Shown: in pieces, positions 1 through 24,422 of the stretch
Numbering within the stretch: the stretch's first letter is position 1
Layout: every line of letters begins with the position of its first letter
Origin: a bacterium
GTDB lineage: Bacteria > Vulcanimicrobiota > JABDET01
Direction: 5' to 3'
NCBI GenBank assembly: GCA_021817145.1
Contig: JAKAVV010000013.1
Location: 3,141-67,140 of the forward strand
DNA: 64,000 bases
Position numbers and translations under genes: made by a program
The notes under the pieces: model-generated
What the model saw: only the letters and a program-made list of their open reading frames with translations
What the model was told of the DNA's origin: nothing
The model's database searches: none

Positions 1-711
1 CATGCCATGGATTTCACCTTGTTTTTAGGACTTCTCTCAGCAGGAGCAGGAGCGTTTTTGATCTTTCAAGTTCGGGATTACAAACGGTTATTTGCGTTTT
101 CAACCATTGAACAAATGGGGATTATTTTAACCGCTTCAAGTCTTGGTTCTACAACAGGAATGGCAGGGGCTGTTTTCCAAATTTTTACCCATGCTCTGAC
201 AAAATCTTTCTGTTTTTATGCTGCAGGTTCTGTCCTTCTGGTCACAGGCACAAGAGAGATCTCTTCTATCAAAGGGCTGCTCCGTCAATCCCCGTATGCA
301 GGAACATCTTTATTGTTGGGAGGATTAGCCCTTTCCGGGTTTCCTCCATTCGCTCTGTTCATGAGTGAATTTTTCATTTTAAAAACATGGATTTTTGCCG
401 GTTATGATTGGATCAGCGGAGTTCTTGCGGTTTTTCTTCTGGCTGCTTTTATTGGGATCTTGTTTCATATCAATCGAATGGTTTTTGGGAAATCCGAGAA
501 TTCAAAAAAGTCATCCCTTCCTTTCCCATGCAAGCTTTCTCTATTGATTTCTGCGATTCCCGTTCTCTTATTTGGAATCTGGATCCCTCCTTTTCTGCAT
601 CATCTTTTACATGCAGCTTCCCTTAGTTTGGTTAGAGTGACTGTAGTGAAAACCCACCCATTAAGCCTCATGTGCCAGATGCATTCCTTTTATAGGAGAG
701 GTGAGCGATGA
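1..711 (+). CDS. Antiporter-like membrane subunit, C-terminal part (NuoM/NuoN/MnhD family); 5' end outside window
   Basis: Reading frame is open from base 1 (H-A-M...). Polytopic hydrophobic sequence resembles complex-I/Mrp antiporter-like subunits (...FTHALTKSFCFYAAGSV..GLALSGFPPFALFMSEF...). Directly upstream of the NuoCD-like gene, with a 4-nt overlap. Confidence 0.55.
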   Translation, partial: HAMDFTLFLGLLSAGAGAFLIFQVRDYKRLFAFSTIEQMGIILTASSLGSTTGMAGAVFQIFTHALTKSFCFYAAGSVLLVTGTREISSIKGLLRQSPYAGTSLLLGGLALSGFPPFALFMSEFFILKTWIFAGYDWISGVLAVFLLAAFIGILFHINRMVFGKSENSKKSSLPFPCKLSLLISAIPVLLFGIWIPPFLHHLLHAASLSLVRVTVVKTHPLSLMCQMHSFYRRGER

Positions 712-2123
712 ATAAGATACAGCATGAGCAGTGTCCGCCAACAGAAATCCAAAAATTCTGCGAGAAAATACATAAATCAGGCTGCCAATTCGCTTCCTTA
801 ATAGCGGAAGAGATGGAAGCTGAATGGCTTTTGCATTACTGGTTTTACGGAAACGAATCTCAGGGACAGATCCTGGTTCATACCGCTCTGCAAAAGCCAG
901 AACACATTATTCCCAGCATCAGCCTTTCGATTCATGCCGCAGATTGGCATGAAAGAGAAATAGAGGATCTGTTTGGACTTGTTTTTGAAGGTCACCCGAA
1001 ATTAGGAGATTTTATTGTTCAGGCTGCAGGCTCTTTCTTAATGCCGATTGGACCTATTTATGGAGGAGGGTTCGAATCTTCCCATTTTCTTCTGGAAACA
1101 GTTGGAGAAGATGTGATTCACACCATTCGCCGTTTGTTCTATAAATATCGAGGAGTGGAAAAAATCGCGGAAAACAAAAGAATTGATCAGGTTCTTCAAC
1201 TCTCTGAACGGTATGCAGGAACATCCGCTTTCGCCCATTCTCTTGCTTTTTGTCAGGCTGTTGAACAAGCTTGCTTGATTAAAATTTCTGAACGAGCTGC
1301 GGGTTTAAGGATTTTTCTGGCTGAACTGGAACGTATTCGCCATCATATTGGAACCATTGAAAAAATCTGTGAATCCACAGGATTAGGAATTGCAGGCAGC
1401 CAAACCTCTCTTCTTCATGAAGACTGTTTAAGATTAACAGGAGAGCTTACAGGACACCGTTATTTCTTCGGGTTGAATACCCCAGGCGGCTTGCTCCGTG
1501 AATTTACAGATAGAGAGTGCGCTGAGAGTTTAAAAAAGTTAACCATTATCTTAAAACAGCTGCTTGAAATAGAGACCCTTTTAAAAAGAACCAGCAGTTT
1601 TCTGGACCGCCTGGAAGAGGTTGGAATTGTGTCTTTAAAAAACGCGGAGAAAGTGGGGCTTGTGGGTCCTGCAGCCAGAGCTTCAGGAGTTGAGCGAGAT
1701 TTAAGAGCCTGTCAGCCTTATGGGTTTTATGATCCAATTCAATTCTCTATTTCTTGTGAAAGCCAGGGGGATGGATATGCAAGACTCCGCATTCTTTTTT
1801 CTGAAGTGAGAGAATCTTTCCGAATCATGGAACAAATCTTGAAGATGCTCCCCAAAGGATCAGAGCTGCCAGAAAAGTTAGGAGAGCCAGAAAATGCCGA
1901 ATTTAAAGATGGAACAGGAATAGGATGGGTAGAAGCCCCTCTTGGAGCAGAGTTTCAATGGGTTCGAATCTCTGAAAAAGGGACGCTCGCCCGATATCGG
2001 ATCAGCCCCCCTTCTTTTGCGAATTGGCATGGATTTGATCTAGCTGCTGAAAATTTCGCTTTTCAAGATTTTCCAATTATCATGGCCACTTTCGGACTGT
2101 CAGTGGCTGAATGCGATCGATAA
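708..2123 (+). CDS. Fused NuoC/NuoD-like subunit (complex-I 30-kDa + 49-kDa; [NiFe]-hydrogenase large-subunit homolog) lacking the NiFe cysteine ligands
   Basis: N-terminal NuoC motif EREIEDLFGLVFEGHP. NuoD/HycE-like core GPIYGG..HFLLETVGEDV..YRGVEKIAE. Where hydrogenases have RxCGxCxxxH this protein has RYAGTSAFAH. C-terminus ends VAECDR rather than DPCxxCxxH/R. Confidence 0.8.
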   Translation: MNKIQHEQCPPTEIQKFCEKIHKSGCQFASLIAEEMEAEWLLHYWFYGNESQGQILVHTALQKPEHIIPSISLSIHAADWHEREIEDLFGLVFEGHPKLGDFIVQAAGSFLMPIGPIYGGGFESSHFLLETVGEDVIHTIRRLFYKYRGVEKIAENKRIDQVLQLSERYAGTSAFAHSLAFCQAVEQACLIKISERAAGLRIFLAELERIRHHIGTIEKICESTGLGIAGSQTSLLHEDCLRLTGELTGHRYFFGLNTPGGLLREFTDRECAESLKKLTIILKQLLEIETLLKRTSSFLDRLEEVGIVSLKNAEKVGLVGPAARASGVERDLRACQPYGFYDPIQFSISCESQGDGYARLRILFSEVRESFRIMEQILKMLPKGSELPEKLGEPENAEFKDGTGIGWVEAPLGAEFQWVRISEKGTLARYRISPPSFANWHGFDLAAENFAFQDFPIIMATFGLSVAECDR

Positions 2124-2137
2124 GTGGAGGAGGAAAA

Positions 2138-2689
2138 ATGTTTCAGTGGATTTTGCAAGGATTGAAAGCTGGAGTTAAAACTAAAGATTACTCCAGAGAA
2201 AGTGAGCTTTCTGCTGGAATCGCTCCAGAATTCCCAGAAAGTGAAACAGTGGAAAAACGAAAAATGAGAAAACTACCGAAAGCTTTTCAACACTCACTGA
2301 ATCTCTTTATTGTGGATACAGGGGACTGCGGCGCCTGCTTAAATGAAATAAAACGGTTAAACACTCCTTATTACAATTTTCATCATCTCGGCTTTTTCGT
2401 GACACCAACCCCAAGAAACGCGGATGTTCTTTTAATCATCGGTCCAATTGTCGAGCACATGAAATTACCATTAAAAAAAGCTTATGAGGCTATGCCTGAA
2501 CCTAAAAAAGTGATTGCTGTTGGAACCTGCCCTATTTCAGGATGCGTTTTTGGTCCAAGCTTTATTTCAAGCGGGGTGATTCCTTCTGATATTCCGGTTG
2601 ATCTTTCTGTTCCAGGATGTCCACCATCCCCTCTGGCAGTTTTAGATGCTTTAATGAAAATCGCGGGGAAAAACGAGATCCAGCCATGA
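2138..2689 (+). CDS. NuoB / hydrogenase small-subunit-like [4Fe-4S] protein
   Basis: Four conserved Cys in NuoB-type spacing (DCGACLNEI ... GTCPISGC ... VPGCPPSP). GGAGGAGG RBS 6 nt before the ATG at 2138; the ORF tracker's upstream alternative start at 2111 is less likely. Confidence 0.8.
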   Translation: MFQWILQGLKAGVKTKDYSRESELSAGIAPEFPESETVEKRKMRKLPKAFQHSLNLFIVDTGDCGACLNEIKRLNTPYYNFHHLGFFVTPTPRNADVLLIIGPIVEHMKLPLKKAYEAMPEPKKVIAVGTCPISGCVFGPSFISSGVIPSDIPVDLSVPGCPPSPLAVLDALMKIAGKNEIQP

Positions 2690-4791
2690 TATACCCCAAC
2701 CTCTTTTTCTATTTATTTTTAATTTTTTCTGGAATTGGAATGATTTTATCCATTCTTTTACCTATGGGAAAAAGACTGCAAGCCCTGGGATGGACAGGGG
2801 GATCCTCTGCTCTGACTCTGATTATATTAAGCGGTCTTATCCTTGCTGCTGGGGGAAATTTCAGGCTTTTCCATCTTCAAATTTGGAGATTTGGGATTGA
2901 CCCTTTTTCAGCTTGGTTTATTTTAATCACAGGACTTGTGTTCCTCCCTGTTTCAATTTTCTTAACAGAGCACAAGAAAAAAGCGGCGGGAAACTCCAGC
3001 TTGAAGTCCTTTGGAATCCTTTATCATGCCCTTCTCCTCTTTATCCCTCTTGTTTTCATGGCAAGAAATATTTTGTGTTTTCTTATTGTCTGGGAGATCA
3101 CGGCAGTCCTCAGTTATTTTCTCGTTCATGAAGGAGATGAACAAGGATCCAGCGCCCAGGCAGGGTACTTTATGCTGGTTTTCAGTGAAGCTGGTTTTTT
3201 CGCTTTCACCCTGGCTTTTTTATTAATTGCCGCAAGAGCAGACTCTCTTAATTTCGCAGCCATGGAAAAAATACACTTAAGCGCGGATCTGCAGTGGGTT
3301 GTTTTTCTCCTTTCATTTATCGGGTTTGGGATAAAAGCTGGAATCCTCCCCTTTAATCTATGGATTCCTAGGACATACAAACAAGCCTCTGAACCATTCC
3401 CCTTGATCTCCTCAGGAACTATGACAAACCTTGGGATTTACGGAATTTTACTCATCAATTTAAAATTTGCCCCCTTGCGCGCCCCTGGACCAGGATTGGT
3501 TCTACTGGTGTTTGGAGCAGTCACCGCTTTTCTCGGAATCGTGTATGCAGCCATTGAAAAGGATCTGCAAGAAATGCTTGCCCACAGCACGATTGAAAAT
3601 ATGGGGATTGCCCTGTGCGGATTTGGAGCAGGGTTTGTGTTCCTGGCAGAAAAATTTCCTGTTTTAGCAGCTATTGCGTTTACTGCTGGCTTTTATCATT
3701 TACTCAATCATTCCATTTATAAATCTCTTTTATTTATGGGAACAGGAAATATAATCTCAAAAACAGGGGTTCAAAACAGCGACAAACTGGGAGGACTGAT
3801 TAAAAGTATGCCGTGGACAGCTGCTTTCTTTTTAATCGGATCTCTGGCGATTTCAGCGATCCCTCCGTTTAACGGGTTTGTAAGCGAATGGCTGACTCTG
3901 CAGTCCCTGCTGCAGTCTTTTTCCCTTGAATCTCACTCTGTTAAACTGATCTTTGCTCTTTCAGGGGCGCTGCTGGCTCTAACAGCAGCCCTTGCTGCAA
4001 CCTGTTTTGTCAAAGGATTCGGAATGAATTTCTTAGGAGTTCCAAGAAGTCTTGAAGCAGAAAAAAGTCATGAAGCTGGAAAAGCCTCTTTGTTCTCTAT
4101 GGGGTTTTTAGCTCTGCTCTGTCTTTTTTTAGGAATTGCTCCAACTTATGTGATTCCTGTTATCAGCCGCATGATTCAACCTTACGTCAGTGCTAGCTCA
4201 ACTCAAGCTTTAGTTCCAAATTTTTTCCATCCAAAATCTTTAAATCCTGGCTTTGTTTCCACTTTTCATCGTCTAGGAGCCCAGGTCGGAAAATCGATTC
4301 TTCCAGGAAGAGGGCTGGTGGTTCTTCATCAAGGATTATCAAGAAACCCTGTTGTTTTTGCGATGTCAACTTCTTATGGGTTTCTCATCCTGCTCTTTCT
4401 TCTTGGGATCGCCTTTGGAATTGTATGGATTTTTACTCGTCAGAGAAAAGTTTCAAGGAAAGAAGTCTGGGCAGGCGGAATTCGAAGCCTTGTTCCAGAA
4501 ATGACTTATACAGCCAGCGGCTTTTCAAATCCAGTGAGCGTGATCTTCCAGGGAATTCTTCATCCCACCCAAACAAAAGAAACCAGAGAAGAGATTGCGG
4601 AACATTTTAGAACAGCCATTCGAATTGAAAAGCCGTCTATTCATTTAATGGATTACTGGATAATAACCCCTTTTTCTCAGGGATTAAAATTTATCAGCAT
4701 GGGATTAGGAAAGATGCACACAGGTAAATTAAATGCTTATGCAGCCTATATTTTTATCACTTTATTAATTTTACTCTTTTTGGCAAGATAA
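2686..4791 (+). CDS. Large antiporter-like membrane subunit (NuoL/MnhA/HyfB family)
   Basis: About 700 aa with many TM helices and the antiporter-family motif region (..HSTIENMGIALCGFG..FYHLLNHSIYKSLLFMG..). ATGA start/stop overlap with the NuoB-like gene (start trimmed from the tracker's 2617). Confidence 0.75.
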   Translation: MIYPNLFFYLFLIFSGIGMILSILLPMGKRLQALGWTGGSSALTLIILSGLILAAGGNFRLFHLQIWRFGIDPFSAWFILITGLVFLPVSIFLTEHKKKAAGNSSLKSFGILYHALLLFIPLVFMARNILCFLIVWEITAVLSYFLVHEGDEQGSSAQAGYFMLVFSEAGFFAFTLAFLLIAARADSLNFAAMEKIHLSADLQWVVFLLSFIGFGIKAGILPFNLWIPRTYKQASEPFPLISSGTMTNLGIYGILLINLKFAPLRAPGPGLVLLVFGAVTAFLGIVYAAIEKDLQEMLAHSTIENMGIALCGFGAGFVFLAEKFPVLAAIAFTAGFYHLLNHSIYKSLLFMGTGNIISKTGVQNSDKLGGLIKSMPWTAAFFLIGSLAISAIPPFNGFVSEWLTLQSLLQSFSLESHSVKLIFALSGALLALTAALAATCFVKGFGMNFLGVPRSLEAEKSHEAGKASLFSMGFLALLCLFLGIAPTYVIPVISRMIQPYVSASSTQALVPNFFHPKSLNPGFVSTFHRLGAQVGKSILPGRGLVVLHQGLSRNPVVFAMSTSYGFLILLFLLGIAFGIVWIFTRQRKVSRKEVWAGGIRSLVPEMTYTASGFSNPVSVIFQGILHPTQTKETREEIAEHFRTAIRIEKPSIHLMDYWIITPFSQGLKFISMGLGKMHTGKLNAYAAYIFITLLILLFLAR

Positions 4792-4994: not shown

Positions 4995-5276
4995 ATGAAA
5001 ACCCTTCCTAAAGTAGAAAAAGAAAATATTGTTAGAATTCTGGAGCGGCTCAATGCAGCAGAACGAATTCTCATCGTAAAACAAAAGAATGGTCGACTCA
5101 GGTTTTATGATCCGCAAAAATATTATGAACACAATGCCTATTTAAAAAAAGCTGTTAAAGAATGGAAGCCGTGGAAAAAAAGAGAGAAATCTCCAGATTC
5201 TATGATTGAAGCTGTTGAACTCGGTTCTTCCAGCAATTTGTCTCGAACAGAAATTTACGGCGATCTTCAGCCTTAA
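4995..5276 (+). CDS. Hypothetical 93-aa protein; putative antitoxin partner of the downstream PIN toxin
   Basis: Stop is 2 nt before the PIN gene start. Lys/Glu-rich with no recognisable RHH/AbrB/Phd signature; the role is inferred from position only. Confidence 0.45.
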   Translation: MKTLPKVEKENIVRILERLNAAERILIVKQKNGRLRFYDPQKYYEHNAYLKKAVKEWKPWKKREKSPDSMIEAVELGSSSNLSRTEIYGDLQP

Positions 5277-5278
5277 AA

Positions 5279-5728
5279 ATGAAAAAGGTCGAATTTTTTG
5301 GCTTGGACACCAATATTCTGGTTTTCGCGTACGATTTGTCCAGCCCCAATCATGACAAAGCCAAGGCTATTTTAGAGGACGCCTTAAAAGGAGTTCGTAA
5401 AGTTTGCCTTTCTCATCAAGTTTTACGAGAATATTTTTCAGTTGTCACAAGAAAAGTAGAAAAGCCTTTAACCCCTCAAGAAGCGGCAAAAAGGGTCCTG
5501 TTTTTAAACCGTTCAAGACGAATAAAGAAAATTTATCCAAAGCGTTCTACTCTAAGAAGATGTATTGAATTTTGCTCAACCAGCAATATAAAAGGGGCCT
5601 TGGTTTTCGACTTGTTTTACGCCATGACTCTTGTTGATAATCATGTCCCCTATCTTTACACGCACAATGTTAAAGATTTCTTGTTTTTAAAGTCTCTTAA
5701 ACCCATTGATCCATTTCTGGAAGAATAG
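5279..5728 (+). CDS. PIN-domain ribonuclease (VapC-like toxin)
   Basis: PIN acidic-residue pattern: LDTNILV (D10), VLREY (E), LVFDLFYAMT (D), TLVDNHVPYLYTHNVKDF (D, D). About 149 aa. Tightly linked to the upstream small gene. Confidence 0.7.
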   Translation: MKKVEFFGLDTNILVFAYDLSSPNHDKAKAILEDALKGVRKVCLSHQVLREYFSVVTRKVEKPLTPQEAAKRVLFLNRSRRIKKIYPKRSTLRRCIEFCSTSNIKGALVFDLFYAMTLVDNHVPYLYTHNVKDFLFLKSLKPIDPFLEE

Positions 5729-9558: not shown

Positions 9559-11703
9559 TTACACCTTTGTCAGGCTGACCTGTCCAACGGACTGAATGTT
9601 AAACCTGGGAGCGATCTCATTGTAAGACAAAGCCACCAATCCAGGGAATGCCCGCTCAGTCAATCGTTTAATAAACTGCCTGACAGTGGCATTGCAGAGC
9701 ACAATGGGCTGGAGCCCTTTTTCGCTTAATTTTTTGATTTGATCTCCAATCGCTTTTAAAATCTCCTGTCCCATCTGCGGATCCAGGGCAAGGAACGATC
9801 CAAACTCTGTTCTCTGCACAGACTGCATGATAATCTGTTCAATTTCAGGATCCAGGGTGAACACATTGATAACTCCTTCATTGTTTGCGTAATCTCTGCA
9901 GATCACCCGTGAAAGAGCCTGGCGCACATACTCAGTCAGCATATCCGGATCTTTTGTGACATGAATATAATCCGCAAGGGTTTCTAAAATTGTAACGAGA
10001 TCCCGAATACTCACTCTTTCTTTAATTAAATTCTGCAGAATTTTCTGCACCTCTGCCAGTGATACTGCTTCAGGAACAACATCTTTCACAACAGCGGGAT
10101 GGGTTTTTTTGACGGTTTCGATCAAGCCTTGAGTTTCCTGTCTTCCTAAAAGTTCTGATCCATGGGTTCGAACGATTTCTGTAATTTGAGTGGCGACAAC
10201 ACTGACAGGATCAAAAATCATGCAGCCTAATCTTTCTGCTTCTCTCCTTTCTTCCGGTGGAATCCACATTCCCGGCATTCCATAAGTGGGATCCGTTGTT
10301 TTTGTTCCTTTTAAATTTTTTAACTGGTGTTCAGGTCCAATCGCTAAAAACTGTCCCATGACCACTTCTCCTCTTGCCACTTCCACATCCTTTATTTTAA
10401 TCACATACGCGCTCGGCTTCAGCTGCAGATTATCTCTAAATCTCACTCCTGGCACAATAATCCCCATTTCCATGGCAATATGTTTTCTCACAGAACCAAC
10501 CCGTTCCAGAAGTTTTGCTCCTTCATTGGGATCCACAAGGGGGAGCAGGGAGCGTCCTACTTCAACACTAATGGGATCCACCTGCATAAAGGTAACCACG
10601 CTCTCAGGTCTTTTTGTGGCTTCTTCAGCAGCTTTCTTTTCCTGCTGTTGAACAACCACCTGTTCCTGAACAGTCTGGCGAGAAAGAAAATAACCAAGTC
10701 CTGCCATAAAGATGCTGATCAGCAAAAATGGTTCCCAGGGAAGAGGAAGAATTCCCACCAGTGAAAGAAGAGCAAGAATTCCAGAAACCCCTCCTGCCAC
10801 CATTAAAGCAGTTGGCTGCTGGGTAATCTGCCCAATAACATCCGACCCTAAATTAGCATCTGAAGCAGCTCTTGTTACAACCATGCCCATGCTGGATGAC
10901 ATTAAAAAAGCGGGAATGGTTGTGGAAAGCCCGTTCCCAATCACCAGAAGAACATAAACTTTTAACGCATCTGCTGCTGACATCCCATGCTGGAGCATTC
11001 CCACAATCAATCCCCCGACAATTCCAACCACCATGACAACAATAGCCATCATGGCATCCCCTTTAATAAACTTTCCTGCTCCATCCATGGCTCCATAAAA
11101 ATCAGCTTCTCTTTCAATATCGCTTCTTTTTTTGCGGGCTGTATCGGGATCAATGAGTCCTGAATGCAAATCCGCGTCAATTGCCATCTGTTTCCCTGGC
11201 ATGGCATCCAGAGTAAACCGAGCGGCTACCTGAGCAATTCTTTCAGCTCCTTGAGTGATCACGATAAACTGAGCTGCAATCAGCAAGATAAAAATAATCA
11301 AACCTGTCACAACATTCCCATGAACCATCAAATTAGCGATTCCAGGGATCACATTTCCAACACTTCCTTTCGCTCCTGGAACTGGAAACCCGACATGACC
11401 GGGAGTTCTACTGGTTAAATTCCCATTAATAAGAATTAAGCGAGCAGCAGAAATATCCAGGGCAAGCCTGAAAAGAGTAGCCACTAAAAGAATAGAAGGG
11501 AAAACCGCAAATTCAAGAGGATCTCGAATATAAATGCTGACAATCAGGGTTAAAATCCCCCAGGCAATATTCAAAACCAAAAGGAAATCCAAAATAGCAG
11601 GAGGAAGGGGAACAATCAACATAAAAACAATAACGCATAAAACTATGGCTGCAATAATATTCGAATTGCTGATGATTTTCCCGAGGAGAGAGTCCTGGCT
11701 CAT
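9559..11703 (-). CDS. flhA: Flagellar type III export apparatus protein FlhA
   Basis: 714 aa. N-terminal TM domain and conserved FlhA cytoplasmic domain, with recognisable family motifs throughout. Confidence 0.95.
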   Translation of the reverse strand: MSQDSLLGKIISNSNIIAAIVLCVIVFMLIVPLPPAILDFLLVLNIAWGILTLIVSIYIRDPLEFAVFPSILLVATLFRLALDISAARLILINGNLTSRTPGHVGFPVPGAKGSVGNVIPGIANLMVHGNVVTGLIIFILLIAAQFIVITQGAERIAQVAARFTLDAMPGKQMAIDADLHSGLIDPDTARKKRSDIEREADFYGAMDGAGKFIKGDAMMAIVVMVVGIVGGLIVGMLQHGMSAADALKVYVLLVIGNGLSTTIPAFLMSSSMGMVVTRAASDANLGSDVIGQITQQPTALMVAGGVSGILALLSLVGILPLPWEPFLLISIFMAGLGYFLSRQTVQEQVVVQQQEKKAAEEATKRPESVVTFMQVDPISVEVGRSLLPLVDPNEGAKLLERVGSVRKHIAMEMGIIVPGVRFRDNLQLKPSAYVIKIKDVEVARGEVVMGQFLAIGPEHQLKNLKGTKTTDPTYGMPGMWIPPEERREAERLGCMIFDPVSVVATQITEIVRTHGSELLGRQETQGLIETVKKTHPAVVKDVVPEAVSLAEVQKILQNLIKERVSIRDLVTILETLADYIHVTKDPDMLTEYVRQALSRVICRDYANNEGVINVFTLDPEIEQIIMQSVQRTEFGSFLALDPQMGQEILKAIGDQIKKLSEKGLQPIVLCNATVRQFIKRLTERAFPGLVALSYNEIAPRFNIQSVGQVSLTKV

Positions 11704-12849
11704 TTATTCCCTCCTCCTCGATCTTGAAGTTTGCGGCATCTGAGGTTCCTCTCTCATCCTTAAAATACTCCGTCTTTTAGCCATCTCTCTTTTTCTTTTT
11801 AATCGAAACACAAAAGCTAAAACTTCAGCAACCGCTTTGTAAAGCTCTCCTGGAATCGTCTGTCCTATCTTGCAGGCTTCAAACAAAGCCCTTGCCAGTC
11901 CAATATTTTCGATAATCGGAACTTCATTTTTTTCCGCGATTTCTCGAATCATTTCAGCGATCAATCTCTCCCCTTTTGCCAGAACAACAGGAGCATCCAT
12001 TTTCCCCTGCTCGTATTGAATAGCAATGGCAAGATGGGTGGGGTTTGTAATCACAGCGCTGGCATTCGGAACCTGCTGCATCATGGACTGTTCCACCATT
12101 TGTCTCTGCATCTGACGCATTTTAGCTTTAACATGAGGGTCCCCTTCTGTGTCTTTAAACTCATCTTTTAACTCTTTAATGGACATTTTCATTTCCATCA
12201 TGAACAATTTCTTTTGAATTAAATAGTCAATAATGGCTAAAACCAGATAAGCTGCTGTCACATACCAGATTAATTTAAACATCAGGCTCAATCCAAAGGA
12301 AAGGATATTTCTAAGATTCCAGGCAACTAAATTTTTAAAAGTCCCCATTGAATTAGAAATAACTTTATAAGCCACAGTTCCAATAACTGCCACTTTAATC
12401 ATCTGTTTAATGAACTCAAACAAGGATTTCTTGGAAAAAATCTTTTTAAATCCCTCGATAGGACTGATCTTCTGCAAGCTGGGGGTCAGAGGAGCGGCAG
12501 AGAAAAAAAATCCAATTTGAGCGATATTCAGCAGAAGCGCGGTCAGAAATGCTACAGCAAGAACAGGAATCACCAGTTTTGCCGCAACCATCAAAACGTT
12601 CAAAATAATTCTGTGAACATCCCCTTCCCTAAAGGAAAGATTAGGGATCTGACCATACAGGTTATGGGTAAAAGACAGGAGATTCCGAATTCCCCATTCA
12701 CCAGCCCATGCCAATGCCAGCATCATCGCTGCAAATTGGAGGGCTGAAATGATCTCCATGCTTTTAAAAACCTGCCCCTTTTTCTTAGCTTCCTGCAGCT
12801 TATGCTCTGTTGGTTCTTCGGTTTTTTCTCCTTGTCCATCATCCGGCAT
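11704..12849 (-). CDS. flhB: Flagellar export apparatus protein FlhB
   Basis: N-terminus ...EKTEEPTEHKLQEAKKKGQVFKS matches the FlhB start. 381 aa. Contiguous with flhA. Confidence 0.9.
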   Translation of the reverse strand: MPDDGQGEKTEEPTEHKLQEAKKKGQVFKSMEIISALQFAAMMLALAWAGEWGIRNLLSFTHNLYGQIPNLSFREGDVHRIILNVLMVAAKLVIPVLAVAFLTALLLNIAQIGFFFSAAPLTPSLQKISPIEGFKKIFSKKSLFEFIKQMIKVAVIGTVAYKVISNSMGTFKNLVAWNLRNILSFGLSLMFKLIWYVTAAYLVLAIIDYLIQKKLFMMEMKMSIKELKDEFKDTEGDPHVKAKMRQMQRQMVEQSMMQQVPNASAVITNPTHLAIAIQYEQGKMDAPVVLAKGERLIAEMIREIAEKNEVPIIENIGLARALFEACKIGQTIPGELYKAVAEVLAFVFRLKRKREMAKRRSILRMREEPQMPQTSRSRRRE

Positions 12850-12855
12850 AATCGC

Positions 12856-13659
12856 TCACCTCTTTTGCAGATCCAAAATTAAAGAAGCCATATCCCCGTT
12901 CAGGCGGTGCCAAAAATGGGGAATAGCCAGATAAAACATGGGAACAATGCTTAAAAGCAGAAGAGAAAGCCCAACCAGAATATTTAAGGGGAACGAGATC
13001 ATAAACACATTAAACTGCTGAGCCGCTCGATTTAAAAGCCCAAGGGCTATTTGAGTAATAAAAAGAGCCACTAAAACAGGGGCGCTGATTTCAAGAGCCA
13101 TGCTGAAAATTCCGCCGCTTGCCTGAATCAGTTTGGTCAAGGCTGCCCCATTAATCGAAAAACTGGTTACAGGGATCAATTGGTAGCTTCTTTTAATCGC
13201 TTTAAAAAAATAGAAATAACCTCGAATAAAAAGCCAGGACAAAATCCCCAATTTTTGTTCAAAAGATGCGATCAAATTGATCGGCTGTCCTGTTGATGGA
13301 TTAACCATTGCAGCAATGGAAAGACCCATTTGAATATCGCACAACTCCCCTGCAAATTGAACTCCAGCAACCACGAGATAAGAGGTAAATCCAATGGTCA
13401 AGCCAATGACAGTCTGGCCAGCGGCATCAATCGCTGTTTCCATAAGACCGGTAGGAAGATGAGCAGGGAGAGGAAGAGTGCGAAAAATAAGAAAAGAGAT
13501 TCCAAGTCCATAAGCGATCTGAGCTGTCATAGGGATCCCTTGAGGTCTTCCAAAAAGAGGAGCCTGCACAAAAACCCCCATCAATCTTGCAAAGATTAAA
13601 ATAAAAAAAACAAAAGATTCAAACCCCAAATTGATAGGACTCATGTTAGGGCCCTCCAT
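12856..13659 (-). CDS. fliR: Flagellar export apparatus protein FliR
   Basis: 267-aa polytopic membrane protein in the fliPQR position. Confidence 0.85.
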   Translation of the reverse strand: MEGPNMSPINLGFESFVFFILIFARLMGVFVQAPLFGRPQGIPMTAQIAYGLGISFLIFRTLPLPAHLPTGLMETAIDAAGQTVIGLTIGFTSYLVVAGVQFAGELCDIQMGLSIAAMVNPSTGQPINLIASFEQKLGILSWLFIRGYFYFFKAIKRSYQLIPVTSFSINGAALTKLIQASGGIFSMALEISAPVLVALFITQIALGLLNRAAQQFNVFMISFPLNILVGLSLLLLSIVPMFYLAIPHFWHRLNGDMASLILDLQKR

Positions 13660-13927
13660 TACTGGTTAAACGAGGAATCGCTTTAAAAAGCTCCACTGCA
13701 AATCTTCCGATCGTTGAACCTATCCATGGTCCTGCCAGCATGGCTGCAATAAAAGTAACCACAATTTTAGGAACAAAGCTTAACGTTTGCTCTTGAATCT
13801 GAGTGGTTGCCTGAATAATGCTGATAATAAGCCCTACTACCAGAGCAGAAATAAGCATGGGAGCAGATACCAGAAGGATCAGATAAAGAGCCTGGGTGCA
13901 GATTCCTAAAATATATGTTTCATTCAT
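13646..13927 (-). CDS. fliQ: Flagellar export apparatus protein FliQ
   Basis: 93-aa two-TM protein with ..ISIIQATTQIQEQTLSFVPKI.., the FliQ signature. Confidence 0.85.
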   Translation of the reverse strand: MNETYILGICTQALYLILLVSAPMLISALVVGLIISIIQATTQIQEQTLSFVPKIVVTFIAAMLAGPWIGSTIGRFAVELFKAIPRLTSNGGP

Positions 13928-13947
13928 TGTCTGTCCTTCCTAAAACT

Positions 13948-14691
13948 TCAATGAACATGAAAACTAACGATCAAACCTTTAATAATAAGCTCCCATCCAT
14001 CCACCATCACAAAAAGAAGAAGTTTAAAAGGGAGGGAGATAGACATAGGAGAAAGCATGAACATTCCCATGCTCATCAGAACACTTGCCACAACCATGTC
14101 AATAATTAAAAACGGAATATAAATTAAAAAACCAATTTCAAATCCAATCTTAACCTCGCTGACCATGAACGCTGGAGTCAAAATATAAAGGGGGGTGTCT
14201 AAAAGATTTTTCGGAGGCTGAGCATGCGCCAAATCGAAAAAAAGCTCTAAATCCGGCTTTTGAACCTGTCTTAACATAAATTTTTTAATGGGAGTCGCTG
14301 CCCTGGCAAAAGCGACAGATTGATTGATTTTCCCTTGAGAAAGAGGGCGAATCGCTTGATTATTGATCTGAATCGCAATCGGAGACATAACATAAAAAGT
14401 AATAAATAAAGCAAGCCCCATCAAAACCTGTGTTGGGGGGACCTGCTGGGTTCCAAGAGCAGAACGAACAAAAGACAAAACAATCAGAGTTCTCACAAAA
14501 CTGGTCATCATCATTAAAAGATAAGGAGCCAGAGTTAAAACACTTAAAAGAAGTAAAATTTGAATTGGCAGAACTAGACCTGAAGGCTTGACAGCCTTTG
14601 AACCAATACTGATCTTGGGGAAGACAATCATTGGCATGGCAGCAGCGTGAATCGGTATCATTCCTGAGATTCCTTTCTGTTCTTTTTCCAT
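13948..14691 (-). CDS. fliP: Flagellar export apparatus protein FliP
   Basis: FliP family motifs (..TSFVRTLIVLSFVRSALGTQQVPP..). Confidence 0.9.
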   Translation of the reverse strand: MEKEQKGISGMIPIHAAAMPMIVFPKISIGSKAVKPSGLVLPIQILLLLSVLTLAPYLLMMMTSFVRTLIVLSFVRSALGTQQVPPTQVLMGLALFITFYVMSPIAIQINNQAIRPLSQGKINQSVAFARAATPIKKFMLRQVQKPDLELFFDLAHAQPPKNLLDTPLYILTPAFMVSEVKIGFEIGFLIYIPFLIIDMVVASVLMSMGMFMLSPMSISLPFKLLLFVMVDGWELIIKGLIVSFHVH

Positions 14692-15113
14692 CGTTTGCTT
14701 AAAGTATTCAAATATCCCGTAAAAGAAGCAGGAGTATCATGATTTTGTTCCATCCATCCCATTTCTTTTGCTGCTGCTGCTTCATCTAATTGGGTTAAAA
14801 AACTAATATTCTGGTCAGTAACCCCGAGCAGGTAAAATTTCCCCAGCACTTCTATAACTAAAATATAACGTTGAGGAGAAAGAGGGAATCGGTCCACGAC
14901 TTTAATAAGCTGTTTTCCCAATCCCAAGCGATTCAACACATTTTTCCCATACAAAAATTTAATAGTTAAATAAGCGCCTACACAAACGAGAAAAAGAACT
15001 CCTACTCCATAAGCAAGAGAAGAAATTCCTGGAAGGAAATTTTGATTTGAAAAATGCGCGGCATGTTTTGAAAGGGGATGATGAGCTGCAAGAGACAAGA
15101 GCATTGGGGTCAT
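14658..15113 (-). CDS. fliO: FliO/FliZ-like flagellar biosynthesis protein
   Basis: Single-TM small protein immediately upstream of fliP. Assignment by position and topology only. Confidence 0.45.
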   Translation of the reverse strand: MTPMLLSLAAHHPLSKHAAHFSNQNFLPGISSLAYGVGVLFLVCVGAYLTIKFLYGKNVLNRLGLGKQLIKVVDRFPLSPQRYILVIEVLGKFYLLGVTDQNISFLTQLDEAAAAKEMGWMEQNHDTPASFTGYLNTLSKRWKKNRKESQE

Positions 15114-15445
15114 TTTCCTGGCACCTCTGTTATTCTAACACCATAACTCTCATCAATAGCCACAACCTCCCCTTTTGCAATACTTTTCCCATTAACTAAA
15201 ATATCCACAGGTTCTCCTGTCGCTTTTTCAAGTTCTATAACAGAACCAACTCCTAATTTTAAAATGTCTTTTACCAGCATTCTGGTTCTTCCCAGTTCTG
15301 CGGTCACAATAAGTGGAACATCTTTTAACAAATCAATGCTAGCTCCCGCGCCGGATGACTGAACCCCTGATTCCAGGTGGCTGAACTGAAGCGGGCGCAC
15401 AGTTTGTTCTGTTTCTTCTTTTCCATTACTCATCGAAACTTTCAT
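15110..15445 (-). CDS. fliN: Flagellar motor switch protein FliN
   Basis: C-terminal SpoA/FliN domain ..LIVTAELGRTRMLVKDILKLGVGSVIELEKATGEPVDILVNGKSIAKGEVVAIDESYGVRITEV. Confidence 0.85.
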   Translation of the reverse strand: MKVSMSNGKEETEQTVRPLQFSHLESGVQSSGAGASIDLLKDVPLIVTAELGRTRMLVKDILKLGVGSVIELEKATGEPVDILVNGKSIAKGEVVAIDESYGVRITEVPGK

Positions 15446-16436
15446 CCCCTTCTTGAACGACGTGTGTGATCTGAATCGCTAATTTATTTTCAGTGGATCC
15501 TGGCTTTCCTAAAAACTTAGTTTTGCCTGCAACTTTAATTTTCAATGGCTCCTCTCTCCGCGAGATAAGGCGCAGCATATCCCCTTCTTCTAAATTGAGA
15601 AGATCTTGAAAAAGGACTTCAGCCTCTCCGAGTTCCACCACAACAGGAACAAAAGCGGATTCGATCTTTTTCCCTACCACAGGGGCAAGAGAAGAAGCCG
15701 CAGCCCCTTGAGTTCTCCGAATGATGGTTTGAGTGAGCATTTCTTCTGGATTTTTAGGGATGATTTCCCGTATCTGCCGAAAAGGAAAAGCCACTTGGAA
15801 AAGGCTGGTCATCCCGCTGATCCTTAAAACAAAGCGGGCTGAAACCATATTTTCTCGAAATGGAAAAACAACCGGGTAATTCGGCGAAAACTCGATCTGC
15901 TCAATCACAGGAGAAAAAGGGGTGATATCTTTCCATGCTTCTTGATAAGCGAGAAGAAACTGATTTAAAACATGCTTTTCTAAAAGAGCTTTTTCAATTT
16001 CCGTAAATTCCCTCAGTTCTTCCGGAATTTCTCCTTTCCCCCCCATCATGCAGTCCAGAGCAAAAAAAGGCAGAGGGCCTGAGAGCACCCATAATCCTCT
16101 TATTTTATCATTCAAACGAAAAGTCACAAAAGCGGTTGGATCTAAAAACTGATCTAAAAACTCTTTGAAAGAGATCTGCTCGGTATCCTGCAGCTCCGCA
16201 ATTCCTCTCATTTGGAGAGCAGGAGTCAGATGAGGGGGGAGGAATTCAGCGAACTGAGTAAAGATGCGAGTCAAAAACCTCTTTTGTTCTGAAGTAAGAG
16301 ATTCGGACTGCCAATCAACTCTTGACACCTGTGCTGCCAGCGGCTTTTTAAAAGAATACGTTTTCCCCTCTTCTTTTCCCATCACCTCTTTCACCTTCCA
16401 TGCCTGAGATAAATTTCCTGGTCTCCTCATCAACAT
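15426..16436 (-). CDS. fliM: Flagellar motor switch protein FliM
   Basis: 336 aa. FliM middle domain and C-terminal FliN-like domain. Located between flgE-like and fliN. Confidence 0.85.
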   Translation of the reverse strand: MLMRRPGNLSQAWKVKEVMGKEEGKTYSFKKPLAAQVSRVDWQSESLTSEQKRFLTRIFTQFAEFLPPHLTPALQMRGIAELQDTEQISFKEFLDQFLDPTAFVTFRLNDKIRGLWVLSGPLPFFALDCMMGGKGEIPEELREFTEIEKALLEKHVLNQFLLAYQEAWKDITPFSPVIEQIEFSPNYPVVFPFRENMVSARFVLRISGMTSLFQVAFPFRQIREIIPKNPEEMLTQTIIRRTQGAAASSLAPVVGKKIESAFVPVVVELGEAEVLFQDLLNLEEGDMLRLISRREEPLKIKVAGKTKFLGKPGSTENKLAIQITHVVQEGDESFDE

Positions 16437-16488
16437 ACATTACCCGCATTTCATGCTTAAATGCGGGTTGGGGGAATGGGAGCAAAAT

Positions 16489-17340
16489 TTACTTCACCAT
16501 GTTCGTCGCTGTTTGTGTCATTTGATTCATATTGTTGAAAACAGCGAACTCGGCGTTATAAGCCATTTTTGCAAGAATAACCTGCTGCACCATGGTTGGA
16601 ATATCCACATTGGACATTTCAAGGCTGTGAGTGCTTACACTGGCTGAAATAGGACCCTCTCCTGAAACTCCATCATGAGGCTGTCCAGAAGCGCTGGTCG
16701 CTTCAAAAGAGGTTGTGCCAACCTGTTTAAGCCCATCGGGATCCGCAAATTTAGCCAGTCCTACCTGAAAAAGAGGAACTGTTTTTGTGACTGCTTGATG
16801 TGTCATTGGATCACTGATTTTAATTTCACCATACAGCTTGCCTCCTGCTCCAAATTTAAACCCGGAATACATTCCCCCATACAGTTTAGTATTGGGATCA
16901 TAAGGAAGTTCTATGGTTTGGAGCTTCTTGGATTTTGGCTGTCCATTCCCATTTAAAGCATATCCCTGGACTTGAAGTCCTGAAAAGGGATCTATGAGCT
17001 TCCCATTCTTAAACTCAAAATGCCCGGCTCTGGTATATCTTGTATGTGTTCCATCAGAAAGCACGAAAAAAGTCGAACAAGGAGTCCCGGGTTCTCCGCC
17101 ATCAATCGCTAAATCATAAGCCCCTCCTGTTTTTTCTATTTTCCCTTGAGTAAAGGTAGAGGTATTGGTATGAGTATAAGCTCCAAGTCCCATCCCATTA
17201 TTCATAACCTCCTGAAAAGTCATGTTTTGCGCTTTAAAACCCGGCGTGGTAAAATTCTGAAGATCGGAAAACATGAGATTGATCTGCGAAAATTGATTCC
17301 CCGCCGCATTAAAAGTTTTATAAAAATCAAAACCAGACAT
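16489..17340 (-). CDS. flgE: Flagellar hook protein (short Bacillus-type FlgE; rod/hook family)
   Basis: N-terminal flg_bb_rod motif (..NLMFSDLQNFTTPGFKAQ..). C-terminal rod/hook domain (..LEMSNVDIPTMVQQVILAKMAYNAEF..). The position downstream of fliK matches the Bacillus fla/che order. 283 aa. Confidence 0.6.
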   Translation of the reverse strand: MSGFDFYKTFNAAGNQFSQINLMFSDLQNFTTPGFKAQNMTFQEVMNNGMGLGAYTHTNTSTFTQGKIEKTGGAYDLAIDGGEPGTPCSTFFVLSDGTHTRYTRAGHFEFKNGKLIDPFSGLQVQGYALNGNGQPKSKKLQTIELPYDPNTKLYGGMYSGFKFGAGGKLYGEIKISDPMTHQAVTKTVPLFQVGLAKFADPDGLKQVGTTSFEATSASGQPHDGVSGEGPISASVSTHSLEMSNVDIPTMVQQVILAKMAYNAEFAVFNNMNQMTQTATNMVK

Positions 17341-17352
17341 AGTTTATCCTCC

Positions 17353-18216
17353 TTACGAATTTTTTTGAACTTCTAATTCTTCTACCTGAAGCCCCTGGCT
17401 GGAAAAAGCTTTTGCCAGATCTCCTAAATGAGCCTCTAAAATCTTCCGAACGCTTTTTTCAGAAGCTTTAAATTGCGCAGAGACCTTGCTGCCGCTGATA
17501 GTGAGAGCCAGATGAATTTCTCCTAACTCTTTAGGATTTAAGATCAATCTGGCTTCTGTCCCAGTTTTTACTCTTCTTAAAGAAATCTGTTTTAAAATCT
17601 GTTTAATGACCTCAGATTCTTTCACCCCTTCCTGACTGTCAAGTTTTTGAAGAGAAGTGTTTAAGTTAGAGAAAGCGGTTTCAGAACTTTTAACCGAAGA
17701 TGTGTTTTCATTTGCCATCATCTCTCTTGCCAATTGATCCAGAAAACTGCTTAACTGTCTTCTTGTGTTTAATCGTGTCATTTGAGTAAAATGATCGTAA
17801 GAAAAATCTTGAAGATTCAATCCTCTTGAAGTAAGCATCTTTTGAAATTCCTGCCATGAAGTCTGCCCTTCATGAACTCCATATAATTCTCTGTCACCCA
17901 TGCTCCAGGTAGCTGGATCATGATAAACCAGATCATAAAGATAATGATAAAGAGGAGAAATCTCACTCCTCTGCGTTCCTGAAAGTTTTTGCGATAGAGC
18001 TTTTTTGGCGGTTTCGCGTTTTTCTTTATCATGGGTCGTATTCTTTGATTTAGGGTGAGGATGAGCGTCTTTTTCTTGAAGTTTGTCAGACTCTGTCTTT
18101 TCTTTCAAAATATCCGAAAAAGATTTCGTCTCTTTGGAAGGACGCTGAATCACCCCTTTTTTTTCAAGGGTCGCTGTTTGCTTTTCTTGGCCCAATTGAC
18201 CAATGGTCTGGTTCAT
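17353..18216 (-). CDS. fliK: Flagellar hook-length control protein FliK-like
   Basis: C-terminal FliK domain (..ARLILNPKELGEIHLALTISGSKVSAQFKASEKSVRKILEAHLGDL..) after a low-complexity Ser/Gln-rich N-terminal region. Confidence 0.6.
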   Translation of the reverse strand: MNQTIGQLGQEKQTATLEKKGVIQRPSKETKSFSDILKEKTESDKLQEKDAHPHPKSKNTTHDKEKRETAKKALSQKLSGTQRSEISPLYHYLYDLVYHDPATWSMGDRELYGVHEGQTSWQEFQKMLTSRGLNLQDFSYDHFTQMTRLNTRRQLSSFLDQLAREMMANENTSSVKSSETAFSNLNTSLQKLDSQEGVKESEVIKQILKQISLRRVKTGTEARLILNPKELGEIHLALTISGSKVSAQFKASEKSVRKILEAHLGDLAKAFSSQGLQVEELEVQKNS

Positions 18217-18227
18217 TTTTATCTCTC

Positions 18228-18797
18228 CTATACTTTGGTTGAAACTTTTGCCGATCGGTACATGCTCATAATATCACGGACATAATTCTGGGTCTGACGA
18301 TAAGGAGGGATTCCTCCATACTGCTTCACAGCATTAGGTCCTGCATTATAAGCGGCAAGAGCAAGGGAAACATTTCCCTTAAACTCATCCAGCAGCTGCC
18401 GTAAATATCGAGTTCCCGCAAAAACATTTTGCTGAGGATCAAAAGGGTTGTTCACTCCCAAGGATTTTGCGGTGGCAGGCATTAACTGCATTAAACCCAT
18501 GGCTCCCGCTGAACTGGTTACTTTGGGATCCCCTCCTGATTCTTGATGAATCACAGCTGCAATAAGGTTTGGATCAACGCCATATTTTTTCCCCGCCTGC
18601 TGAATAATCTCTTTGAATCCAGCAATCCCTTTCCCCATTCCAATTCCAACCTGAGGCAAACCAGAAGGCTGGAGAGGCTGAGTATATCCCGATAAAATCT
18701 GCTGAAAAGAACCCTGAGCTTGTTCAGGGGGAGAAAACCGTTCTTCTATCTGTTCAATTTTAGATTCGATTGTTTCGATTCTAGAAATGGCGTCCAT
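18228..18797 (-). CDS. Lytic transglycosylase (SLT domain) embedded in the flagellar operon
   Basis: SLT catalytic region ..AAVIHQESGGDPKVTSSAGAMGLMQLMPATAKSLGV..AGTRYLRQLL..AAYNAGPNAV. The E-S...GLMQ...AYNAG pattern is diagnostic. Confidence 0.75.
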   Translation of the reverse strand: MDAISRIETIESKIEQIEERFSPPEQAQGSFQQILSGYTQPLQPSGLPQVGIGMGKGIAGFKEIIQQAGKKYGVDPNLIAAVIHQESGGDPKVTSSAGAMGLMQLMPATAKSLGVNNPFDPQQNVFAGTRYLRQLLDEFKGNVSLALAAYNAGPNAVKQYGGIPPYRQTQNYVRDIMSMYRSAKVSTKV

Positions 18798-18870
18798 TGA
18801 TTCCTCCTATCTTTATCATAAATCTTCTGCTTTACGGTTTTGTTGCCTTTTTGTTAAAAAACTGTAAACA

Positions 18871-19335: not shown

Positions 19336-19336
19336 A

Positions 19337-22462: not shown

Positions 22463-22556
22463 GTTGATTCCTCATCTCATGCTCTTTTCCAATTGTAGCA
22501 AATCGGATGAGTTTTGACAAGAGGAGGGGGATTTTTCTCTAAAGCCCCCTCATGTA

Positions 22557-24035: not shown

Positions 24036-24043
24036 ACAGGCGC

Positions 24044-24289: not shown

Positions 24290-24422
24290 ATTTCACTCCC
24301 TCCTTCATTAAACTCACAGCTCCCGCTCTCTAAACTTTCTCGTAAATGACCTGATATCCTCCACTTCCAAGAACAATGTTATTCCCAAGAACAATCATTA
24401 TAATCGGATGGGCGCGCCCTTT

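Follow-up and report, generated by a model that had tools for sequence, protein, structure and literature searches.

Four genes at the very start of a 64,000-nucleotide stretch of bacterial DNA look like parts of a hydrogenase or of complex I, and they raise the question of what a membrane complex of this superfamily can do once its catalytic metal site is gone. The whole stretch, which we call the window, comprises positions 3,141 to 67,140 of contig JAKAVV010000013.1 (assembly GCA_021817145.1; lineage Vulcanimicrobiota, JABDET01; ~41% GC). We found that window positions 1-4791 are the distal two-thirds of a six-gene operon encoding, in this order, HyfC/NuoH-, HyfE/NuoK-, HyfF-, HyfG- (a NuoC-NuoD fusion), HyfI- (NuoB) and HyfB-like proteins, that the large subunit has lost its [NiFe] site, and that the operon is preceded by a fluoride riboswitch. 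The encoded complex is probably a membrane module that is induced by fluoride and translocates ions to keep pH and proton-motive force steady, and not a hydrogenase.

The operon is of the energy-converting hydrogenase-related (Ehr) type, a name first used for Geobacter. Complexes of this type have been catalogued for more than a decade without a function, a substrate or an inducing condition. They form a recognised, functionally uncharacterised class (PMC6349859, PMC10284858), which is defined, according to Marreiros et al. 2013 as cited in these two papers, by the absence of the Ni/Fe-coordinating residues.

The lost [NiFe] site and the fluoride riboswitch

The large subunit, the fused NuoC-NuoD-like protein, matches the Pfam families Complex1_30kDa (1.9e-13) and Complex1_49kDa (2.2e-41) as well as the N-terminus of NiFeSe_Hases. 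Its best sequence match is E. coli HycE (PDB 7z0s_E, 1.3e-47), and MbhL (6cfw_L) scores 4.9e-37. The initial annotation had read the motif RYAGTSAFAH, found where [NiFe] hydrogenases have RxCGxCxxxH, and the C-terminal ..VAECDR as the loss of the NiFe ligands, and residue-level alignment to HycE bears this out. RVCGICGFAHS of HycE corresponds to RYAGTSAFAHS, the first cysteine being replaced by Ala and the second by Ser, and DPCYSCTDR corresponds to GLSVAECDR, in which the canopy Asp has become Gly, the third cysteine Ser and the fourth Glu. The protein and all aligned homologues stop exactly at the Arg of this motif and have no C-terminal maturation peptide. We compared the operon with a set of 80 related loci drawn from GTDB species representatives; all four NiFe cysteines were missing in 80 of 80 loci, and likewise in the 119 closest database homologues. 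This loss dates back to the ancestor of the family.

The quinone site of complex I is also absent. The Gly between the two lost N-terminal cysteines occupies the position of the complex I quinone-binding Tyr, and the beta1-beta2 loop, GPIYGGGFESSHF, carries the hydrogenase-type Glu123 (equivalent to HycE E193) instead of the complex I His; the Nqo4 correspondences used here for the quinone Tyr and His are those that we take to hold for the T. thermophilus sequence. The significance of HycE E193, D529 and R478 follows the structure paper on formate hydrogenlyase (FHL), in which Asp529 is called strictly conserved in the superfamily (PMC9474812). With the NiFe cysteines, the canopy Asp, the maturation peptide and the quinone Tyr/His all missing, the residues of the complex rule out both a [NiFe] hydrogenase and a quinone reductase of the complex I type. 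The vacated pocket carries a conserved new set of residues (A/S-G-T/x-S ... G-L-S-x-A/T-E), although the motif differs between the two riboswitch-linked clades (AECDR versus AGCDR) and the canopy Arg is variable. An AlphaFold model of the large subunit, computed from a 120-sequence alignment, was of high confidence (pLDDT 87.5, pTM 0.90), with low values limited to a deletion junction at residues 101-103, the beta1-beta2 loop and the C-terminal tail; its best fold match was HycE (TMq 0.89), followed by E. coli NuoCD (TMq 0.87). An earlier model from a 10-sequence alignment was poor (pLDDT 58) and was not used.

The order proposed from the window itself, namely antiporter-like, NuoC-NuoD fusion, NuoB-like and large antiporter-like, was upheld by the open reading frames (ORFs) and by the Pfam and NCBIfam matches. 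The tight coupling of the four genes was upheld as well, the junctions being a 4-nt overlap, a 14-nt gap and a 4-nt overlap. Gene boundaries were taken from the ORF listing of the window and from independent gene calls on contigs that encode the identical protein. The identical large subunit is encoded on six metagenome-assembled contigs, and the ORFs are intact in all six strains. The source is an uncultured, flagellated bacterium, whose metagenome-assembled genomes bear the submitter labels Eremiobacteraeota or Firmicutes. One of the six contigs, L002 (GCA_027421845.1), matches the window except for one mismatch in 12,123 bases, and it places the start of the operon ~2.5 kb before window position 1. 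The initial annotation had pointed to the genes beyond this edge as those that could complete a canonical complex I. What lies there is limited to the HyfC-like gene, the HyfE-like gene and the remainder of the HyfF-like gene, preceded by the riboswitch and a gene for an unrelated protein with a two-partner secretion (TPS) domain; the rest of an 11-14-subunit complex I is absent. The same order (written H-E-F-CD-B-L) is kept in 61 related loci.

The six-gene cluster is thus of the Ehr type and is not a split nuo operon. The Ehr assignment made from the window is supported by the absence of the NiFe cysteines and by the presence of NuoB-, NuoH- and antiporter-like subunits in one cluster, and all points of the published definition are present: a group-4-hydrogenase-like large subunit without NiFe cysteines together with NuoB-, NuoH- and Mrp/antiporter-like subunits. 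The operon differs from the Ehr complexes of the literature in its fixed H-E-F-CD-B-L order and its fluoride riboswitch, neither of which is mentioned in the Ehr papers examined, and in the fusion of NuoI to NuoB in its relatives, the NuoI part of which is deleted in the window lineage. For the four subunits tested, the best PDB matches were the FHL subunits HycE, HycG, HycC and HycD, with HycG in second place just behind MbhJ. E. coli Hyf/Hyc (FHL-2, HyfA-J; FHL-1, PDB 7z0s) provides the closest solved relatives of every subunit tested, and the two systems share the membrane set HyfB, C, E and F, the NuoC-NuoD fusion, the CxxC-type NuoB and the Glu of the beta1-beta2 loop. In contrast, the NiFe ligands, the canopy Asp, the maturation peptide, HyfD, HyfA/HycB and FdhF of the E. 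coli systems are absent here, and HyfH exists only as a fused remnant. The similarity to complex I (Nuo/Nqo) extends to the NuoB, C, D, H, K-like and L/M/N-like modules, but there are 6 subunits here versus 11-14, and the N-module, NuoI, NuoA/J, the quinone Tyr/His and the NuoB CC motif are absent. We conclude that the operon descends from a group-4 [NiFe] hydrogenase of the Hyf/FHL-2 type and is itself of the Ehr type.

What distinguishes this operon is its leader. On contigs of the window's species a fluoride riboswitch (Rfam RF01734) lies 27 nt before the GTG start of the NuoH-like gene and ~2.5 kb upstream of window position 1; a covariance model search detected no copy within the 64-kb window itself. 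The element was present in 6 of 6 strains of the window's species, and L002 carries an identical copy. In a scan of seven loci with RF01734, five of the six loci besides that of the window's species also had it immediately before the operon. We then searched all loci with a covariance model built from 14 Rfam-validated matches and tabulated the hits against gene positions. Evaluable operons, namely those with the H-E-F-CD-B-L order and enough upstream DNA, came from at least six phyla, and 62 of 62 had a plus-strand riboswitch 0-360 nt before their first gene. Further riboswitches in the related loci stand in front of genes for pyrophosphatase, enolase, MutS-like and DUF190 proteins, all of them typical members of the fluoride regulon (PMC11139923), indicating that the matches behave as bona fide fluoride riboswitches. 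In the predicted minimum-energy fold of the free state, CUCCUACCG, the 3' strand of the aptamer, forms a helix with CGGAAGGAG, the Shine-Dalgarno region of the NuoH-like gene (z = -3.5), and this predicted folding would correspond to the usual design of a translational ON switch. The riboswitch gives the Ehr class a physiological context, which the initial annotation did not have.

The related loci also contain a second NiFe-less Ehr arrangement, with the gene order L-H-E-F-CD-B or B-L-H-x-F-CD, the motifs ESISGDSSFSH and NLSYSGTDR, and ~31% identity to the window protein (L047, L049, L050, L057, L067, L068, L072, L073 and L081-L083). The same covariance model detected a riboswitch in none of the eight complete loci of this arrangement. 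Two contigs (L038 and L060) each carry two hydrogenase-like operon types, the riboswitch-linked one on one strand and a 31-44%-identical copy on the other.

The association of the riboswitch with genes of this kind has been noted before under another name. Genes "encoding formate hydrogen lyase" were reported downstream of the crcB/fluoride riboswitch (Weinberg et al. 2010, PMC2864571), and Baker et al. 2012, as cited in PMC11139923, list them as well; this 2024 review still reads them as a formate-oxidising fermentative enzyme. The literature genes share the RF01734 element and the annotation labels with ours, and they are almost certainly the same gene family as the window operon, but every riboswitch-linked large subunit that we examined lacks the NiFe site. 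Without a NiFe site and without a linked formate dehydrogenase, "formate hydrogen lyase" is a misnomer. This corrects the fluoride literature on a point of some weight, as the supposed enzyme is ranked there among the commonest to be controlled by the riboswitch and is read as a fermentative shift in formate use. The Ehr class and the riboswitch association are each already known, and it is their connection that appears undescribed: in the literature searched, no paper came up in which the genes behind the riboswitch are identified with NiFe-less Ehr complexes or in which their lack of a NiFe site is noted, and a remark to that effect in Baker et al. 2012 or Marreiros et al. 2013 is possible.

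Decay of the iron-sulfur sites and retention of the membrane relay

The NuoB-like subunit matches Pfam Oxidored_q6 (2.5e-23) and HycG (1.9e-23), with MbhJ ranking just ahead of HycG. Its start was taken at MFQW, as in the homologues; the ORF list also contains an earlier ATG at 2111. The subunit had been credited with all four cluster-binding cysteines, and alignment to MbhJ and HycG indeed places Cys64, Cys67, Cys131 and Cys161 at the proximal-cluster ligands. The motif DCGACLNE has the hydrogenase-type CxxC spacing and not the CC of complex I. In the window lineage one candidate [4Fe-4S] site is left.

Residues 1 to ~35 of the NuoB-like protein are a relic NuoI/HyfH-like N-terminus (motif W-x3-GL-x-G-x-K/T-T-x-Y); the NuoB domain follows at once, and there is no cysteine between the two. 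This segment corresponds to the N-terminal membrane-surface segment of HycF and of all complex I relatives described in the FHL paper (PMC9474812). The NuoB-like protein of the relatives is ~70 residues longer at the N-terminus, and a ferredoxin-like insert of 60-80 residues, present in 8 of 8 aligned relatives, is absent here. An alphaproteobacterial clade has a complete ferredoxin domain with eight cysteines, 2x(CxxCxxCxxxCP), which amounts to a NuoI/HyfH domain fused to NuoB, and a clade closer to the window retains four cysteines (CP...CxxCxxC), enough for one cluster. The domain is gone from the window protein and from its 80%-identical sister lineage, both of which keep the first ~35 residues. 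The absence of NuoI, which had been noted as a missing gene, is accordingly a lineage-specific deletion of a domain that the relatives carry fused to NuoB.

A second in-frame deletion, of ~35 residues, is located in the large subunit at the junction Phe102/Ile103. The deletion has taken away the end of the NuoC-like domain together with the linker between NuoC and NuoD (consensus in the relatives LHEEWPEGVNPMRxxFD...W.P.R), and the Pfam NuoC match of the window protein ends at profile position 102 of 124. The linker is present in 9 of 9 aligned homologues, including P0002 of the 80%-identical sister lineage. The sister lineage therefore lacks the ferredoxin domain and retains the linker, indicating that the ferredoxin domain was lost first and the linker second. 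For the large subunit, the ratio of nonsynonymous to synonymous substitution rates (dN/dS) against the sister lineage L088 was 0.125; NuoB gave 0.18 and the start of the HyfB-like gene 0.26. The HyfF fragment was left out of this comparison, the gene call at L088:3-500 being out of frame (26% identity). The operon genes are under purifying selection, and the values of 0.13-0.26, together with the ORFs intact in six strains and the confident HycE-like model, argue that the reduced version is functional.

The four NuoB cysteines of the window lineage are not a conserved feature across the family. In 24 of 54 relatives, mostly Acidobacteriaceae, the fourth is replaced by N, D, S or T, and all NuoB cysteines are gone in L037, L046 and L077, two of which are labelled Bacillota and one Actinobacteria. 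The family thus offers a natural deletion series that comprises a version with three clusters, one with a one-cluster ferredoxin domain, one without the fourth NuoB cysteine, one without any NuoB cysteine and, in the window lineage, one without the ferredoxin domain. The NuoI-NuoB fusion, the piecemeal loss of cofactors and the doubly deleted minimal form appear undescribed.

The membrane subunits present a different picture from that of the hydrophilic ones. The HyfF fragment in the window matches Pfam Proton_antipo_M (1.3e-22), and hydrogenase-4 subunit F is its best NCBIfam match (1.9e-42, or 5.1e-109 for the full-length protein). The HyfB-like protein matches Proton_antipo_M (1.7e-39), NCBIfam hydrogenase-4 subunit B (1.6e-149, below the equivalog cut-off) and HycC (PDB 7z0s_C, 1e-62). 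In at least 95% of sequences the relay residues E132, K218, H332, K336 and E391 of the HyfF-like subunit are conserved, as are E137 (TM5), K217 (TM7), H342/K346 (TM8) and E401 (TM12) of the HyfB-like subunit, several Glu of the NuoH-like subunit and two Glu of the HyfE-like subunit. HycC has Leu where the HyfB-like subunit has the TM7 Lys. The NuoH-like protein is the most conserved subunit, with 60-80% identity to its relatives compared with 41-55% for the others and with 27% of its positions conserved in at least 95% of sequences; this strong conservation may mark the functional heart of the machine. A deletion series in the hydrophilic part that leaves the membrane relay fixed bears on the question of which parts of complex I are needed for coupling.

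In eight loci of Acidobacteriaceae type (L011, L016, L020, L021, L023, L025, L026 and L028) a second HyfB-like gene stands at the end of the operon (H-E-F-CD-B-L-L).

Possible functions of the complex

How could such a complex serve a cell exposed to fluoride? In the mechanism that we propose, rising cytoplasmic fluoride would lead the aptamer pseudoknot to capture the CUCCU strand; in the free state this strand would pair with the Shine-Dalgarno sequence, and fluoride binding would thus switch on translation of the operon. The product would be an ion-translocating membrane machine composed of two antiporter-like subunits, the NuoH-like subunit and the HyfE-like subunit, with an intact Glu/Lys/His relay. 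Its activity would help to hold the cytoplasmic pH and the proton-motive force while hydrogen fluoride (HF) enters and dissociates and F- is exported. The hydrophilic NuoCD/NuoB cap would most likely be a structural or gating module on NuoH. HF permeation is known to acidify the cytoplasm, fluoride export depends on the proton gradient, and Na+/H+ antiporters are the most common riboswitch-associated genes after the exporters themselves (PMC11139923); the role proposed here parallels that of these antiporters. Carriers of the operon include Acidobacteriaceae, Terracidiphilus, Stellaceae, Methylovirgula, Acidiferrales, Paraburkholderia and Rhodanobacter, and their labels, from which alone habitat was judged, suggest acidic soils, bogs and mine waters as their main habitats, environments in which the entry of HF is greatest.

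Different Fe-S sites are lost in different lineages while the membrane residues are kept, arguing that the conserved job is probably not electron transfer. For the family as a whole, a non-redox mode like that of Mrp is more likely than a redox pump, and in the window organism there may be redox input through the single retained cluster. Mrp antiporters (PDB 6z16, 7qru, 7d3u) have MrpA/MrpD subunits homologous to those encoded here, with the same charged-residue relay; however, homologues of MrpB/E/F/G are absent here, and the NuoH-like subunit and the NuoCD/NuoB cap are absent from Mrp. The complex may work in the manner of Mrp without belonging to that family. Another related system is Pyrococcus MBS/Mbx (PDB 6u8y), a NiFe-less relative of MBH that is also derived from a hydrogenase, makes no H2 and keeps Mrp-like ion-translocating subunits. 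MBS differs in having a separate NuoI-like subunit with a chain of clusters and many more Mrp-type subunits, and the similarity to it is much weaker (6u8y_L, 5.9e-24; 6u8y_M, 6e-08).

Several points weigh against a fluoride-induced ion translocator that works without redox chemistry. Ion translocation itself, the coupling ion and the direction of transport are deduced from homology. The riboswitch lies outside the window, the ON-switch logic is a prediction from the fold, and of the 62 upstream riboswitches 55 reach 34 bits or more, the other 7 being weak at 22-30 bits. A secondary antiporter would have no obvious need for a 650-residue hydrophilic cap under strong purifying selection, and 78 positions of the NuoC-NuoD fusion are conserved in at least 95% of sequences, among them the proton-relay residues Glu123 and His177. 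With three complete Fe-S sites in the alphaproteobacterial clade and all four NuoB cysteines in the window lineage, electron transfer may still matter in some or all members. Finally, the flanks covered ~10 kb per locus, and an unlinked redox partner would have escaped us.

The main rival is the classical Ehr hypothesis, which we regard as clearly less probable than the ion translocator and still worth serious attention. In this hypothesis ferredoxin, flavodoxin or an unlinked dehydrogenase would reduce the NuoB cluster, electrons would pass to an acceptor in the former NiFe pocket, and this would drive the export of H+ or Na+; once induced by fluoride, the complex would serve as a reserve source of proton-motive force. 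A coupling of redox reactions to charge translocation is the general assumption for Ehr complexes (PMC6349859). The intact NuoB cysteines, which the sister lineage shares, the full Fe-S motifs of the alphaproteobacterial clade, the conservation of Glu123 and His177 and the purifying selection on the hydrophilic subunits all speak for a redox pump. However, the NiFe site, the quinone Tyr/His and the canopy Asp are all absent, the NuoI-like domain is deleted in the window lineage, and the riboswitch-linked members that have no NuoB cysteine or lack the fourth indicate that a continuous electron path is not conserved. In addition, among the ORFs within 7 kb of the operon in the 80 loci, which we clustered, there was no redox partner (formate dehydrogenase, NuoE/F or a conserved ferredoxin); a Fer4 protein encoded 2.4 kb downstream in one Desulfomonilaceae locus is unlinked and not conserved.

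A more direct role of fluoride is doubtful. The remodelled NiFe pocket and the NuoH cavity could bind F-, HF or a metal-fluoride, which the antiporter-like subunits would expel at the expense of the proton-motive force, or the cap could sense fluoride and gate ion flow. The strict riboswitch linkage (62/62), the conservation of the NuoH-like subunit, by far the highest in the operon, and the replacement of the pocket residues by a conserved new set would all fit such a role. To our knowledge no member of the complex I superfamily moves an anion, and the homologous cavity of complex I opens to the lipid phase and not to the periplasm. The difference in the pocket motif between the two riboswitch-linked clades also argues against it. 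A related and equally doubtful idea is that the complex is a superfamily member without redox catalysis that has become a dedicated fluoride-defence machine, whose pocket and NuoH cavity would bind or sense F-/HF and whose antiporter-like subunits would use or build an ion gradient. If a fluoride-defence role were true, a complete assembly of Q-module and membrane arm would for the first time have a function that is linked to an anion and free of redox chemistry, and the window lineage would represent its most stripped-down natural form.

A piece of a split nuo operon is very improbable, and so is a relic that is decaying and no longer functional. The compact proteins and the two in-frame deletions relative to the relatives might be taken as signs of decay. 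However, upstream there are only three further hyf-like genes before the riboswitch and the TPS-domain gene, the NuoB-like subunit has the hydrogenase-type CxxC, the best PDB matches are to FHL and not to Nuo, and the intact ORFs in six strains, the dN/dS values and the confident HycE-like fold are not those of a relic.

A genuine formate hydrogenlyase or hydrogenase-4, the identity suggested by the source annotations ("formate hydrogenlyase subunit 5", "Ni,Fe-hydrogenase III large subunit") and by the literature label (PMC2864571, PMC11139923), deserves practically no credence and is ruled out at the sequence level by the lack of NiFe cysteines and of a maturation peptide; moreover, the contig flanks (~7-10 kb on each side) contain no HycB/HycF-type subunit, fdhF or hyp genes, and the NCBIfam scores are far below every equivalog cut-off.

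With an invariant fluoride riboswitch on a broad Ehr subfamily, the class now has a concrete condition under which its function can be tested, namely fluoride at acidic pH, and cultivable carriers exist, for example a Paraburkholderia isolate. Fluoride tolerance also limits the microbial degradation and synthesis of organofluorine compounds.

Surroundings of the operon

The coordinates of the operon genes, of the motifs discussed above and of the neighbouring features are collected in Table 1.

Table 1. Positions of the operon genes, key motifs and neighbouring features. Plain numbers are window positions; L002 is the near-identical contig and L001 another contig of the window's species.
Feature	Position	Strand	Remarks
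TPS-domain protein, 1,891 aa	L001:1032-6707	+	TPS N-terminal; unrelated; ends 30 nt before the riboswitch
Fluoride riboswitch, RF01734	L001:6737-6797; L002:4474-4534	+	42.1 bits (gathering score 34); 104-nt leader L002:4474-4577
NuoH/HyfC-like subunit, 316 aa	L001:6824-7774	+	first operon gene; GTG start; Pfam NADHdh 8.8e-36; HycD 1.5e-41
HyfE-like subunit, 221 aa			second operon gene; hydrogenase-4 membrane subunit model 1.9e-17; weak NuoK match
HyfF-like gene, full length, 504 aa	L002:6227-7741; L001:8490-10004
HyfF/NuoN-like antiporter subunit, 3' part	1..711	+	last 236 codons; cut by window start
Fused NuoC-NuoD / HyfG(HycE)-like large subunit (EhrL-type), 471 aa	708..2123	+
Deletion junction Phe102/Ile103 in large subunit	1011..1016	+	in-frame, ~35 residues
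RYAGTSAFAH, residues 168-177	1209..1238	+	in place of RxCGxCxxxH; alignment to HycE
GLSVAECDR, residues 463-471	2094..2120	+	in place of DPCxxCxxR; alignment to HycE
NuoB/HyfI-like small subunit, 183 aa	2138..2689	+
Cys64 and Cys67 of NuoB-like subunit	2327-2338	+	proximal-cluster ligand positions of MbhJ/HycG
Cys131 of NuoB-like subunit	2528-2530	+	as above
Cys161 of NuoB-like subunit	2618-2620	+	as above
HyfB/HycC-like large antiporter subunit, 701 aa	2686..4791	+	last operon gene
Small ORF	4995-5276	+
PIN-domain protein	5279-5728	+	weak Pfam PIN/PIN_3
DUF6062 protein, 340-347 aa	6101-7144	-	several CxxC pairs; coiled-coil-like C-terminal tail
Flagellar export/basal-body cluster (FlhA, FlhB, FliR, FliP, FliM, FliI, FliF)	9559-26087	-

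No NuoH or NuoI gene follows the operon within the window, as had been stated from the first reading; a small ORF and a PIN-domain gene, the DUF6062 gene, a methyltransferase gene and then flagellar genes are found there instead. The GC content and the FHIPEP/Bac_export genes had raised the idea of a chlamydial origin, which was rejected because the adjacent genes are flagellar (FliM, FliP, FliF, FliI). The small ORF and the PIN-domain gene directly after the operon are probably a toxin-antitoxin pair of the VapBC type. Consensus scans for promoters and terminators around the leader and after the last gene gave nothing above the expectation from shuffled sequences.

The related loci have other neighbours. 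Among the clustered flanking ORFs, DUF190/COG1993 proteins recurred in 33 loci, dynamin-family GTPases in 25, MutS-domain-V proteins in 23, enolase in 14 and MFS transporters in 10, mostly ~1-4 kb downstream of the operon (for example L015:14753-15520, L043:18957-21473, L071:19215-20963 and L040:4692-6011); none of the five is found beside the operon in the window's organism. As a set they are typical of the fluoride-riboswitch regulon. Several of these neighbours have a fluoride riboswitch of their own, so that the regions look like "fluoride islands". Further neighbour clusters had no Pfam match and are probably spurious ORFs of high-GC DNA.

Two observations concern genes farther downstream in the window. 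A gene for an HD-domain phosphohydrolase (22557-24035) sits inside the flagellar cluster, and a PAS-GGDEF-EAL protein, of the kind involved in cyclic di-GMP turnover, is encoded at 37712-39433 on the plus strand.

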